From Negaprion brevirostris (taxonomy: Eukaryota): DNA of 64,000 nucleotides. A program made the position numbers and the translations under genes. Positions 26,786 through 64,000 of this stretch are shown in pieces; within the stretch, counting starts at the first letter, position 1, and each line of letters opens with the position of its first letter. The stretch spans positions 95,988,751-96,052,750 of the forward strand of contig JARDVH010000193.1 of assembly GCA_030324005.1 (NCBI GenBank). The letters run 5' to 3'. The notes beneath the pieces were generated by a model. It made no database searches and was not told the DNA's origin. It saw nothing but the letters and a program-made list of their open reading frames with translations.

Positions 26786-26917
26786 GTTTAACTGCTGCAG
26801 CAATGGCTGAAGCGATGAAGTTACAAAAACTGAAACTTGCGACGATGAATAATCTCCATGGTAACGGTAGTCAAAATGGCACTGAGTCTGAGAATGAAGA
26901 ACTGAATTCTAACACAG
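26786..26917 (+). CDS. DACH2: Internal coding exon of Dachshund homolog 2 (region C-terminal to the DD1/SKI-SNO box)
   Basis: Acceptor ttttcatcatttgtttgttAG at 26784-85 and donor CAG|GTGAGT at 26917/26918; 132 nt, phase 1-1. Translates (G)LTAAAMAEAMKLQKLKLATMNNLHGNGSQNGTESENEELNSNT(G). This closely matches recalled vertebrate DACH2 (TAAAMAEAMKLQKMKLMAMNTLQGNGSQNGTESEPDDLNSNTG) and lacks the poly-Ala expansion of the equivalent DACH1 exon. Confidence 0.93.
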
Positions 26918-57246: not shown

Positions 57247-58352
57247 TTAAAGATTTTTACTAGAATTCAAGTGACAAGGAAAGGAAGTGGAGGCTGTGGA
57301 GGAGAGGTTTAGCTGGCGCACACCTCTTGAACAATGACTTCTTAAAGAATGGACCAAGAAGTAAAAGTAATTCAATGATGTTACTGACTTTCAATAGTGT
57401 TATGGGTACAGTAGATGAAGGGGTGGAAGAGTAAGGGAGAATCAATAGTGATACGAAGGGATGGCCGATTAATTGGGCAATAAAGATAAACTGATTCCAC
57501 AGCAACATGTTATATCATTGCATTAAAACCTGTGTCCAGCCATACCCACTAGCTTTGTCAAACCTCAAATTAACTAACATTGCAAAAGAAAGAAAATGTG
57601 AATATTAAAAAGATTAAATTTTATAAGCAAAAAGGCATCTCAAAAAGAAACTACTTTCAAATAATCAGTGCAAGAGAAAGCTACTCAGTGAACACTGAAA
57701 TGGGAGACTTTGTGCATTTAAAAACAACATCTTTGCAGTTTAAAGACAATAAAGTCTATTTCCTTTTGGGTGTATGCTGGTTGTAAAAAGGCCTGGGGAG
57801 CCAATCCAAGAACACAGCTGTAAAGGCTGGTGAACTAATTGCTTTTCCTTCCGCTGCCTCATTCATCTTCATTCTTCACCAGTTACAGAAAATTATCAAT
57901 ATTCTCAGTTGTATTTCATCCGTAATCCCTTTTTTGTGCAGCATTAGGCACTGCCAGATGATTCCTTGGCAGGAGTCAGGGTGAAGAGCCATGAAATGCC
58001 ACTCATGGCAGATGGCACTGTTCAGAAGAAATATGACAAACACATGCAATTTGTTAGCGAACTCTGGTATTACTAGTCATGTGAGCTGTCATAATCACCC
58101 GAGTGGCTTTATGCTACGCGAACACGGAAAGCCAGGCTCTCCAGTAAGAATAGTTTATCACGAAAACACTGATTAAAATAGTCCCACCTATTCAGATATT
58201 TGTTGCCGATTGCACCATTTATTGCAAGATGCGGACTCTTTTCTTTACGACCCCATTCATCGGTGAAGAATTGTATTGTTTATCCACCTTCAATCTATCT
58301 CCCGTGCCCCATGAGAAAAAGATGCCCTTGTGACAGAACAGCCACATTACTT

Positions 58353-59210
58353 TTTTTTAAAAATTCTTCCTTGGGATGTGGTGAGACCAGTATTGATTGC
58401 CATTCGTTAATTGCCTTTGAGAAGGTGGTGGTGAGCTGCCATCATAAACCGCTGTTGTCCGTAGGTGTGTAAGTAGGTACACCCACAGTGCTATCAGCAA
58501 GGGAGTTCCAGGATTTTGACCCAGTGAAGGAATGGGGATATAGTTCCAATTTAGCATGGTGTGTAGCATGGAGCGGAACTTGCAGTTGGGTTGTTTCCCT
58601 AAATCTGCTGCCCTTGTCCTTCTAGGGGGGCAAGGGTTGCTGATTCAGAAAGTGCTGTCTGTTGAAGGAAACTTGGCGGGTTGCTGTAATGCATCTTGTA
58701 CATGGTAGACATTGCTGCCAATATGCATTGGTGGTGGAAAGAGTGAATATCTGTGGATGGAGTGTCAATCAAGTGGATTGTTTTGTTCTGGATGATGTCG
58801 AGCTTCTTGAGTATTAGAACTGCATTCATCCAGGCAAATGGCAAGTATTTTTTCACAATCCTGAGTTATGCCTTATAAGTGGTGGACAGGCTTTGGGGAG
58901 TCATGAGGTGAATCACTCAGCTGAATTCTCGGCTTCTGACCTGCGCTTGTAGCCACAATATTTATATGTTTGGTCCTATGGTAACTCCTTCAAGGTCTTG
59001 TAATGGGGGAATTAAGTGATGGAAATTCCATTGAATGTCAAGGTGATGGTTAGATTTTTTTTGTTGGAAATGGTCATTGCCTGGCAGTTGTGTGGTATGA
59101 ATGAAATCTACCGTTTAATCAACCCAAGCATAAATATTGTCCAGGTTTTGCTGCATATGGATAAGAACTACTTCAGTACCTGAGGAATTACGAAATGCTG
59201 AAAATTGTCA
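58353..59210 (-). mobile_element. CR1-group LINE 3' portion
   Basis: Minus ORF KYLPFAWMNA...LKKLDIIQNK; reverse complement of 61805-62605. Confidence 0.85.
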
Positions 59211-60827
59211 AATGCAGTCAGTGCATAAGGAGGTGTTTATCAGACTCTGAGTGTGTTACCATGCTAATTGCTTTTGCACAGTTGTTTGGTGAATCTTTGG
59301 AAGTAGTCTTGCGAAGGATATTTTCACAGGTTTGATAATGACTAAAAGGTAATCGTTCAGCATACCTACCGGCTGTGTGGACAAAGCAGTTACAGAGCGA
59401 GTAGCAGAGAGGTCCACAAAAGGGAAAGATTTCTCATGTAATATTGGAGAAGCATTTTCCTTTTTAAACAATAGGCTACAATATCAGTGAATGTCAGCAC
59501 CAGACTTTTAATGGGTTTTTTCTGTGAGAAGGAAGTTACACATTAATCAGACTTTAAGGTGTACGCCAGTAAAAATCTGACAATTTCTTAGCACAGTGCA
59601 CATCGCTGACTGAGAGTAATTCCATGGGTTCCGTACAATTTCCTCAGGAGAACATAACTTTCCATTTAATAAACTGCACATAATACAGGTACGTTTCAAT
59701 TCCATTGCATTATACCATGCATCACACAATAGTTGAGAAAGATGTGTACTGACAATGGGCACCATCACAGGAACACCAGGCTGCCGCTTGTAAATGATGA
59801 GTTGCTGAAGGGAAATGACAATAATTGCATTTGATTACCTTGGCACGCAGTAAGGTTATGTTACTGAACTCAATAACATAAGCCCTTGCCTCGGCAGCAA
59901 TTTATATCTGACCAATATTTCGATATCGAGCACTTGGTCACATAAGCCAATGGAGTGTTGCGGTGTCGGTTCAGCTTGATGCAAATGCTTTCATTGCAAG
60001 TGAGTTGGAGCCCGTGAGAGTAAGAGTTACACCTGAAGCCCTCCGGGCAGGAACGGATTTGTTTGGATTTCCAAAAGTGTACATGCACACCAGGCAAAAT
60101 GGGAGACCACATTCTTGCCTGGGAGGAAGGGCAGCTTTGTTTGCAAGATGAACAGCTACAATTCACTTTCTATGTTTATATGTCCCAAGGAAACTACATG
60201 TTTATGTTGTGAGATCCATAAAACTTACCATTTTTATAAAGACATATGCTGAGATTTATGGGACAGGCCCAATATAAACACTTAAATCCTATTTTGTACC
60301 CATAAAATGTTATTAAAAGCAATAAAAAAGGCATCTTNNNNNNNNNNNNNNNNNNNNNNNNNNNNNNNNNNNNNNNNNNNNNNNNNNNNNNNNNNNNNNN
60401 NNNNNNNNNNNNNNNNNNNNNNNNNNNNNNNNNNNNNNNNNNNNNNNNNNNNTCAATGTAATACATTTAATATTTGCCTTGAATTATATAATTCCCACAA
60501 ATTTCTCCATAAAACACACCGTTGCTTAGTGAACATGATGTTCGGCACAACAAGCTTAGCTCAAACTATGATGCTACATCATTGGGGTAGGTTTGACAGT
60601 AGATGTAAAGCTAACAGCACTAACTGTTACTCATCGGAGTTTAGAATGAGAGGAGACCTTATTGAGACATATAGGATTCTGAGGGGGCTTAACAGGGTAG
60701 ATGCTGAGAGGCTGTTTCCACTTGTGGGAGAGTCTAGCACCAGAGGGCATAATTTCAGGGTAAGGAGTTGCCCATTTAAGATGAAAAGGAATTTTTTCTC
60801 TCAAAGCATGGTGAATCTGTAGAATTC

Positions 60828-60987
60828 GTTAGTGGTTTGTGAAAAGAAATCCCACTCACCTGACGAAGGAGCAGCGCTCCGAAAGCTAGTGGTGTTTGCT
60901 ACCAAATAAACCTACTGGAGTTTAACCTGATATTGTAAGACTTCTTACTGTGTTTAACCCAGTCCAATGCTGGCATGTCCACATCAT
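60828..60987 (+). mobile_element. 160-bp Penelope-like terminal fragment flanked by a GAATTC TSD
   Basis: GAATTC at 60822-27 and 60988-93; the body matches the inverted-repeat arms at 5089-5218. Confidence 0.8.
60857..60892 (+). ncRNA. Minimal type I hammerhead ribozyme motif
   Basis: CAC (stem I) - CTGACGA - A - GGAGC agc GCTCC (stem II) - GAAA - GCTA (palindromic AGCT stem III, CUA site) - GTG (stem I'). Confidence 0.75.
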
Positions 60988-61804
60988 GAATTCTTGACCG
61001 CACAGAGGACAGTAGAGGCTGCGTTATTAAGCATGTTCAAGGCTGAGATGGACAGATTTTTAAGTAGTAAGGGAATCGGGGTTTTTTGGGGATACATTGG
61101 GAAAATGGAGTTGAGGATTATCAAATCGGATCTCACTGAATGGCAGAGCAGATTTGTTGGGCCTTACGGCCTATTCCTGCTCCTATATCTAATGATCTGT
61201 TATCTATTAGAAAAAAAACATACAATAACTTCCACTGAATGCATTATTAAACATGGAAATCTGAAAGTTACTGTTGGAGATGAACTGCTTCTTCAGATAC
61301 CAGTACCTCACCCAGACAATCATTACTGAAATGCATTGACTGGTGTGAATTTGATATACATACCTGATATACACTAAACCTGATGAAGGAGATGATGGTT
61401 TGTATCTTGGGCATGACTGAGCACACTCACGATGATGATACGTTCCTGCTTTGTGGCCCTTTTAAACTTAAAGATTACCCTCGTCTTGCTAAGGCATGAA
61501 TGGCAAGCTGCTGCTGACATGAACCTCTTGCTTCGTGTCTCCAACCCCCTTCCCTCACACCAACCTTCCCTTCCTAAGTTCCTGCTTTCAGACCAACCAA
61601 GAACTGCTGTCTGCCAAGCTCCAGGAGGAGGAGAGCGCAACGGCATAGCATTGATAAAGGGATCCTGTCACCAGATCCACCGCTTGCAGCTCAGATACTG
61701 GCACTGCATATACCCTGGAGGCCATCAGCATGTTGTGAGGCACCGGACACGGTTGACCTGCAGCCAGGCCAGAAATAAAAGATAGTTTGTTTTTGAGCTC
61801 ACTG

Positions 61805-62605
61805 GAAGCCGACCAGACAAGTGGCAAGTAACATTCAAGCCACACAAATGTCAGGCAATGACCATCACCAACAAAGGGACAATCTAACCACCACCCTTTG
61901 ACATTCAGTAGTGTTACTATCACTGAATCACTGTCAACAGCTTTGGGGTTACCATTGACTAGAACTGGATTTGCCACATAAACACAATGGCTACAAGTGC
62001 ATGTCAAAGGCTAGGAATACTGTGGCGACTAAATCATTTCCTGAATCCCCAAAGCTTAACCATCATCTACAAGGCACAAGTCAGGAGTGTGATGGAGTAC
62101 TCTCCACTTGCCTGGATGGATGCAGCTCCAACAACACAAGAAATTTGACACCATACAGGAAAAAGCAGCCTGCTTGATTGGCACCACATTCCCAAACATC
62201 CACTCCCTCCACCATCGAAGCTCAGTAGCAGCAGTGGAGTTGCGGGTTATCATATCGACAAGATGCACTGCACAAATTAACCAGCGATCCTCAGACAGCA
62301 TCTTCTAAACCCATGACCACTTTCAAAGAAGGACGAGGGCAGTAGATACATGGGAACCCCACCACCTGAAAGTTCTCCTCCAGCCACTCACTGTCCTGAT
62401 AAGAAATATATGATCGTTCCTCCATGGTCACTGGGTCAAAATCCTGGAATTTCCTTCCTCATAGCATTGTGGGTCAACGTACAGCACATGGATTGCAGTG
62501 ATTCAAGAAGGCAGCTCACCACCACCACCACCTCAAGGGCAACTGGGGATAGGCAAGAATTGCTGGCCAGCCAGTGAAGCCAATGTCCCACGAATGAATA
62601 AGAAA
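61805..62605 (+). mobile_element. CR1-group LINE 3' portion
   Basis: DKWQVTFKPHKCQAMTI, IYKAQVRSVMEYSPLAWM, DTIQEKAACLI; A-rich end. Confidence 0.88.
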
Positions 62606-63773
62606 AATCAAGTAGTGCTGAAAAGGACTCTGATGATGAGCATAGAGGATGGCAGTGAGTGTGCACACCAAGATATTGGCTGGCTTGTCAGTCAGCCCAC
62701 TGGCCAGGAGCATGGAGGGGCATAGCACAAAGCTTTCCCACTTCGATTGCCCTTCTTCATTTACCTGTTGTTTTGCGAATACAGAGTCACAGGTACTGCC
62801 TCTCCCTATCCGTTGCACCCTGTGTGTGGACAGGTCCTCCAGCATCCTTGGGAAGAGGCAGTAACACTCTGGTACCAAAACACCTCCAAAAACACTCCCA
62901 ACTATTTTAAAATGTTTTCTAATTGAAAATGTTCCACAAATTTAACTCATCAGCAACCAAGGTGCTTGGTCCTACTGCAGGGCCCATCTTTCTGCTCCAT
63001 GTTCCTTTTAAGGACTGGACAATGCAGGCATTGCCAGGACCTCTGTTCGCTAAATTTGGAATCTTGGCATTAGATTAGCTGGTCGGGCAGTCTAACATCA
63101 GGGTAGTGCCAATTCAATATGTTCATGCAAGGCACCCAGCTACACACGACCATCTCATTGAAGAATTCCACATGGGTAACACAGCTAGTGGCCCGTGGCG
63201 CTGCCTACTCACTTGGAAGCAAGGTAAGCCTACATCATTTTGTGACACCATGCCAATGAACTTTGTATGTGCCATCTTTTAATCGTTACTGCATTGCTTC
63301 AGCTTTGTGAACTAGAACAGGATCCTTCCAGTAAAATAACTAAAAAATACATTTTCATTACTTTCAGGTTACCTTGACCTCAGGTTGTGGTCAATTTTTT
63401 TTTGGGAAACTGTAAAATTGAAGAATTTTTCAAATGAATAGCATACTTTAGAAATTCATACAGGTTATGTTAATATGGTTTGCATTTTCTACTGCTGTAC
63501 TCATCAGTGAGTTAATTGTTTTTTGTCTGTTCATTTTTAAATGGGTGAATTGAAATGGAAATTCTTCAGTCTTTCTTGCTTAGCTTTACCCAGCAGGAAA
63601 TACGCTTTGGACCAGATTTTGTTGTAGCAAAAATCTAATGGCTGATTAATCTAATATCTAATGGTGTCTGTCTTGAGTTAAGTCTGTGCCTGCACCCTTC
63701 ATCCCGAAGGATGCACTTGCCCACACTGCAATTGTGAACTGTTAACATTGTAGTGAGGGAAACCAGACATCTG

Positions 63774-63895
63774 GGGCGGAATCTTCCCGTCCCACTCACC
63801 ATAGGAATCGTAGCAGGCGGAGGCGGACCGCGCAGAAGTCCATTGACTTCGGGTGGGGATTTCCAGCTTTGGGCGGCCGTGGGAAAATCCCACCC
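63774..63895 (-). mobile_element. Harbinger-like MITE, family 1, with CTG TSD
   Basis: ctg|gggcggaatcttccc...gggaaaatcccaccc|ctg. Confidence 0.85.
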
Positions 63896-64000
63896 CTGGA
63901 ATCTGAGTGAACAGGGCCACCTAAAATGGTGTGTCCTTAACCAGTCAGATTTAAGCAAAAGGAAATAAAGAAAGGATTTCAGTAGGAGAGCAAATTAAGG

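Follow-up and report, generated by a model that had tools for sequence, protein, structure and literature searches.

A 5′-truncated Penelope-like element with a minimal hammerhead motif, probably inactive, in a DACH2 intron of the shark Negaprion brevirostris

The DNA analysed here, a window of 64,000 nucleotides from Negaprion brevirostris (contig JARDVH010000193.1), holds an exon of DACH2 (dachshund a) and, downstream of it, part of a host intron of about 50 kb (Table 1). The exon was located by tblastn with database proteins, DACH motifs of 4-5 residues having missed it, and the gene's best homologues, from sharks and rays, carry the names dachshund a or dachshund homolog 2. On the + strand, 270 kb upstream, is the DHD exon; the exon after the one in the window is found 16 kb past the insert described below, at C193:96065571. 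With the upstream DACH2 exon on the + strand and the next exon past the insert, the hammerhead motif carried by the insert is in sense orientation within the intron, as a sequence-only reading of this DNA had claimed. The window contains 3419 N, including a run at 60339-60452.

Table 1. Features of the locus in window coordinates
Feature	Position	Strand	Basis or remark
DACH2 (dachshund a) exon upstream of host intron	26786..26917	+	tblastn, 89% to P0031 aa 182-235; AG/GT flanks
Older LINE 3′ fragment split by insert	60630..61200 (limits approximate)	+	80-88% to best relatives
Left TSD copy, GAATTC, 6 bp	60822..60827		empty-site relatives with single copy, 8/14
7 nt not collinear with PLE family	60828..60834		family homology begins at 60835
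5′-truncated PLE 3′ end (end of pLTR plus tail)	60835..60989	+	87-92% to best full-length matches
Minimal type-I hammerhead	60856..60892	+	sequence, descriptor match
Hammerhead stem I	60856-59/60889-92		CAC/GUG plus U-G wobble
Hammerhead core CUGACGA	60860-60866
Unpaired A	60867		between A9 and G10.1
Stem II, GGAGC/GCUCC	60868-72/60876-80		5 bp, 3-nt loop
GAAA	60881-84
Palindromic AGCU	60884-87
Predicted cut site	60888/60889		after A60888
Optional tail, ~37 nt	60950..60987 (5′ limit approximate)	+	bimodal 3′ ends
ATG opening element ORF in tandem copies	60986..60988	+	overlaps right TSD by microhomology
Right TSD copy	60988..60993		sequence and empty-site relatives

The insert is 160 bp long (60828-60987) and lies between two copies of GAATTC. 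Fourteen close relatives of the flanking repeat were compared, of which eight join the flanks with an overlap of exactly 6 nt, the remaining six being deleted, interrupted or without a right-flank match; because those eight carry a single copy of the site, the target-site duplication (TSD) is genuine and the host LINE older than the insert, both as previously claimed. The claim that an older element was split by the insert stands as far as a LINE is concerned, since one host-repeat relative (L129) carries RVT_1 above the cut-off, and the host-repeat peptide matched only proteins without names. The narrower name CR1 is provisional, and the host may be called CR1-like. The right-hand GA of the duplication is also found in the element's own tail (GA comes next in 11 of 20 other copies), so the junction carries a 2-nt microhomology. 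A search for duplications at 54 loci found them, 8-15 bp long and at both boundaries, in six others, with gaps or unclear boundaries in most. Among the contigs of a related organism (C) none bridged a junction of the insert.

Within the insert, an intact hammerhead core spans 60860-60888, and the complete CUGACGA and GAAA, the 5-bp stem II, the short stem I and the palindromic AGCU are all seen, as the sequence-only reading had described them; absent from that description is the unpaired A60867, which sits between positions 9 and 10.1, the pair G10.1-C11.1 being G60868-C60880. The CUGANGA and GAAA core with an NUH site that marks the minimal hammerheads of Penelope-like elements (PLEs) is present, and the palindromic 15.2-16.2 stretch, through which helix III would form only in a dimer, is AGCU, G-C in 54 of 60 rows of the helix alignment. 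Type I topology, an unpaired nucleotide between 9 and 10.1, G10.1-C11.1, palindromic 15.2-16.2, no loop 3 and a short helix I are likewise described for metazoan PLE minimal hammerheads, which mostly occur singly, on PLEs that are truncated (Cervera and De la Pena 2014, PMC4209133); the Schistosoma motifs differ in having a helix II of 7-8 bp, as against 5 bp here (PMC4209133). No shark is named in the abstract, results or discussion of that paper, whose supplementary alignments could include a shark motif. Every sequence feature that could be checked agrees with the Penelope-type minimal type-I hammerhead that had been proposed, and by these features the motif is one.

The relatives of the insert identify its source. 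A genome search with the insert yielded 3059 candidates (40 scored, the best other copy being 91% identical from 60835 onwards, and 30 loci fetched), one with the endonuclease end of locus L022 alone yielded 6140 (40 scored), and one with the tail only yielded 125 matches, of which 25 were fetched. Insert sequence occurs at most about 250 nt downstream of the endonuclease end in 22 of the 29 new loci selected by that end, 10 of the 25 tail-selected loci continue into one common reading frame from the ATG where the window copy ends, and one locus (L106) unites pLTR, hammerhead, tail, ATG and RT-coding sequence. The assembled layout runs from the pLTR (hammerhead, tail, ATG) through RT, a CX4CxxC linker and the GIY-YIG endonuclease (EN), with the next hammerhead about 200 nt beyond; it was pieced together from overlapping loci, no single full-length pLTR-ORF-pLTR copy having been recovered, and the terminal repeats after EN (22/29 loci) and before RT (L106) are found on different copies. 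Pfam matches to RVT_1 and GIY-YIG on genomic fragments fall below the cut-off; identity to homologues from several sharks is 60-70%, and one of these homologues (P0005) has RVT_1 above the cut-off. The linker that joins RT to EN reads C-x4-C-x2-C in L034 and P0005. Judged by these sequences, the source of the insert is an autonomous-type, EN-bearing shark PLE that is Neptune-like: Neptune-type EN+ elements share the C-terminal GIY-YIG, a CX2-5CxxC linker, 5′ truncation, an inverted upstream copy, a 30-40-bp tail and a hammerhead in the pLTR (Craig et al. 2021, PMC8557442). The Cys linker marks Neptune or Nematis and is described as absent in Poseidon (PMC8557442), and it is by this linker that the shark family is placed. 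L106 has about 700 nt of ORF-start region before the part matched by database proteins. L022 shows, in order, a duplication, an inverted pLTR, the endonuclease end, a pLTR, a tail and a 15-bp duplication, and at L022:1497-1505 the pLTR has lost roughly 135 nt internally between two short stretches that resemble each other, apparently through microhomology.

The window copy has no ORF and retains only the last ~155 nt of the element. Collinear family sequence upstream of C3 measures 8-1065 nt among the 30 loci fetched and 25 nt in the window copy, and 28 of the 29 closest other copies extend further upstream than it does, only L003 ending nearby; 12 of the 30 fetched loci halt at gaps or contig ends. 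In contigs from three public runs, loose ends at 60835 occur in 119-160 contigs and continue upstream in pLTR sequence. Of the 25 tail-selected direct copies 24 could be measured; they span 37-374 nt, none of them begins at the hammerhead cut site, and the lengths form a continuum in which a shared 5′ boundary and unit length were not found. The upstream continuation, the linkage to EN/RT ORFs and the continuum of lengths lead us to read the insert as a 5′-truncated PLE end and not as a member of a discrete short family; the short non-autonomous element that had been proposed is therefore not supported, and the sampled copies suggest no peak of 5′ ends at the position where the window copy begins. 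At the 3′ side, 55 copies not selected for full length end at query 125-136 (34/55) or 164-171 (16/55), with five earlier and none between the two peaks, which lie ~37 nt apart, in agreement with a tail of 30-40 bp. The first 7 nt of the insert are matched by none of the other scored hits (40 of 3059). In 17 of the 29 EN-selected copies the pLTR contains their reverse complement, a match of 7 nt being weak evidence; these bases may be a stub left by an inverted pLTR copy. Upstream inverted family copies occur at 19 of the 30 loci, and assembly gaps are frequent at the 5′ junction of inverted insertions (12/30 loci). Five of the 24 tail-selected direct copies (L097-L121) start at query 90-97, downstream of the cut site, which could be a preferred point of inversion or truncation.

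Selection on the motif was examined in 49 copies not chosen for likeness to the insert. At non-CpG positions the core departs from the family majority at 10/441, compared with 331/2840 elsewhere, a contrast whose significance is overstated because the copies are related, and 25/98 cells at the CpG core sites G8 and G12 carry mutations. Rare (private) variants make up 10/441 (2.3%) in the core and 96/2840 (3.4%) elsewhere (p=0.25), in a test of modest power that leans towards core protection. Preferential conservation of core nucleotides, whose absence the sequence-only reading had named, together with a lack of cleavage, as refuting, thus holds across the family and is not detected after insertion, a pattern that fits constraint in the source elements followed by neutral decay. 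An alignment of 61 related rows (the window and 60 of 78 copies, after exclusion of the 18 whose spans were irregular or truncated) pairs in 92.3% of its helix cells; two-sided changes occupy 17 cells, against 7.3 ± 2.2 in shuffles (0/500), but fall in only four pairs (251/500), in rows that are related. Of 78 sampled copies, 37 retain an intact core and 14 the whole motif, and the 35-nt motif with two C/T positions free has at least 329 exact matches in the genome, with 0 for the control. Over the 37-nt ribozyme the window copy agrees with the family majority at every position and keeps all three CpGs; over 153 nt it departs from the majority 12 times. Only one of 70 other copies is equally perfect over the ribozyme; this perfection is mildly unusual and tells against a purely neutral reading, though ascertainment (the copy having been picked as intact) is its likely cause.

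Folding predictions bear on what such a motif would do in the intron. Stem I has a predicted pairing probability of 0.004-0.006 in native contexts of 172 and 372 nt, against 0.76-0.80 in a 51-nt isolate; stem II is predicted to be stable (0.81-0.99), and the AGCU duplex is predicted at -2.5 kcal/mol. Single minimal hammerheads are described as not cleaving in vitro, and dimers as cleaved weakly (PMC4209133; PMC6765202). For a dimer, the closest partner on the sense strand lies 82 kb downstream and several introns away; it is the only other descriptor match in 361 kb covering the gene (26 kb N); the two matches are both sense with none antisense, too few to read a bias. We judge low monomer activity, suggested earlier, to be likely, stem I being predicted to be outcompeted by its native flanks, and the solo window copy would likely cut little or nothing. 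The partner, in a late DACH2 intron at L095:9159 (G000:C193:96131909), belongs to a sister subfamily with a shorter stem II and a retained AGCU.

Several other explanations must be weighed. That the motif resembles a hammerhead by chance alone, with no past as a ribozyme, is extremely improbable. A scan of 58000-64000 with Rfam gave no hammerhead model matching at E<=5, and pairs with two-sided change are no more numerous than in shuffles, which would suit such a reading; a loose 13-nt pattern, with 9 matches where 4.9 are expected, is uninformative. Our own minimal type-I descriptor, used alike for window, gene and shuffles, nevertheless matched once in the window and never in 200 dinucleotide-type shuffles (12.1 Mb), and coincidence is at odds with the core constraint across the family, the extent of pairing, the excess of two-sided cells and a pLTR position that is as published. 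Could the 160-bp unit instead be a short non-autonomous family of its own, SINE- or retrozyme-like and mobilised in trans by the PLE? The clean TSD around so short a unit, the nearly identical 5′ end of L003 and the derivation of animal retrozymes from pLTRs (bioRxiv 10.64898/2026.07.22.740005) speak for it, yet among 29 other top copies just one has its 5′ end no more than 5 nt from that of the window copy, tail-selected copies have no common length, the first 7 nt are matched by none of the other scored hits and the locus has a single hammerhead unit with no adjoining head-to-tail second one. We hold this to be very unlikely.

The window copy might also be active and possibly retained, cutting DACH2 pre-mRNA as a ribozyme with the aid of a PLE protein or of a hammerhead in trans. 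Its perfect motif set against the differences in the rest of the copy, its sense orientation, the second sense copy in the same gene and the protein assistance described for the PLE hammerhead of Anolis (PMC11167929) would all be expected of such a ribozyme; against it stand the 329 equally perfect motifs genome-wide, the predicted weakness of stem I in context and of the AGCU duplex, the distance of the partner, and the report that even the Anolis element showed no read ends at the cut site (PMC11167929), so that we consider it very unlikely. A broader version, that hundreds of intact solo hammerheads in shark introns, the DACH2 copy included, are latent cutters that stay silent alone, appears decidedly unlikely; under it, Penelope protein or abundant pLTR RNA would switch solo copies on and sever host pre-mRNAs.

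We favour with considerable confidence the reading in which the insert is a 5′-truncated copy of a shark PLE and its hammerhead a passenger that probably has little or no activity in the DACH2 intron. The element's endonuclease would have nicked GAATTC in the old LINE, reverse transcription would have been primed at the tail/ORF-start site through the 2-nt GA microhomology, passed an uncleaved hammerhead and halted 25 nt beyond it, and repair would have produced the 6-bp duplication. In the source elements the motif likely acts as an AGCU dimer or with an element protein, processing tandem transcripts, and the solo intronic copy would be without a nearby partner. In Poseidon PAc of Anolis (Frangieh et al. 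2024, PMC11167929) the endonuclease favours ATT, reverse transcription is initiated within the RNA at two sites bracketing the tail, RNA left uncleaved serves as the main template, and cutting by the hammerhead requires the protein. The window copy fits this scheme: its target contains AATT, it terminates 3′ at the far tail site, and it retains sequence to either side of the cut. Both families have two 3′ end points that bracket a tail, ATT in the target and a template apparently uncleaved at the hammerhead. They differ in that PAc is cut 26 nt inside its ORF, whereas the cut predicted here lies 98 nt upstream of the ATG, in that PAc reverse transcription starts ~111-118 nt into the ORF (PMC11167929), whereas shark copies end at or before the ATG, and in that Poseidon lacks the Cys linker of the shark family. 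Inverted partner copies and bimodal 3′ ends are described hallmarks of PLEs (PMC8557442, PMC11167929); inverted pLTRs, tails and 8-10-bp TSDs have also been described (PMC3846280), and most PLE insertions are reported to be 5′-truncated with one terminal repeat (bioRxiv 10.64898/2026.07.22.740005).

Non-LTR retrozymes resemble the insert in being short and pLTR-related, with type-I hammerheads and TSDs of more than 4 bp, and differ in forming head-to-tail repeats of a defined unit with mostly canonical hammerheads, the insert being a solo truncated pLTR end (PMC7229834; bioRxiv 10.64898/2026.07.22.740005). Retrozyme identity, which needs tandem units (PMC7229834), was rejected for this single-unit locus. 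Retrozymes have been reported in one chondrichthyan (bioRxiv 10.64898/2026.07.22.740005).

The insert is ordinary retroelement debris bearing a real motif of an already known minimal kind and, as found, of little consequence, one more truncated PLE end with a known hammerhead. Our literature search found no paper devoted to this shark PLE family, which may well be catalogued in Repbase or Dfam, resources outside that search, and nothing on hammerhead ribozymes in introns of cartilaginous fish. The family offers a handy test set for asking whether minimal hammerheads depend on dimerisation or on a protein, and whether introns are purged of intact sense copies; should solo copies cut host pre-mRNA when the element protein is at hand, this would be a new route of retroelement harm to, or regulation of, host genes. 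Elsewhere in the window, at 5089-5218, a hairpin whose junction lacks the CUGANGA half of the hammerhead is formed by two head-to-head, tail-less, 5′-truncated copies of the same pLTR.
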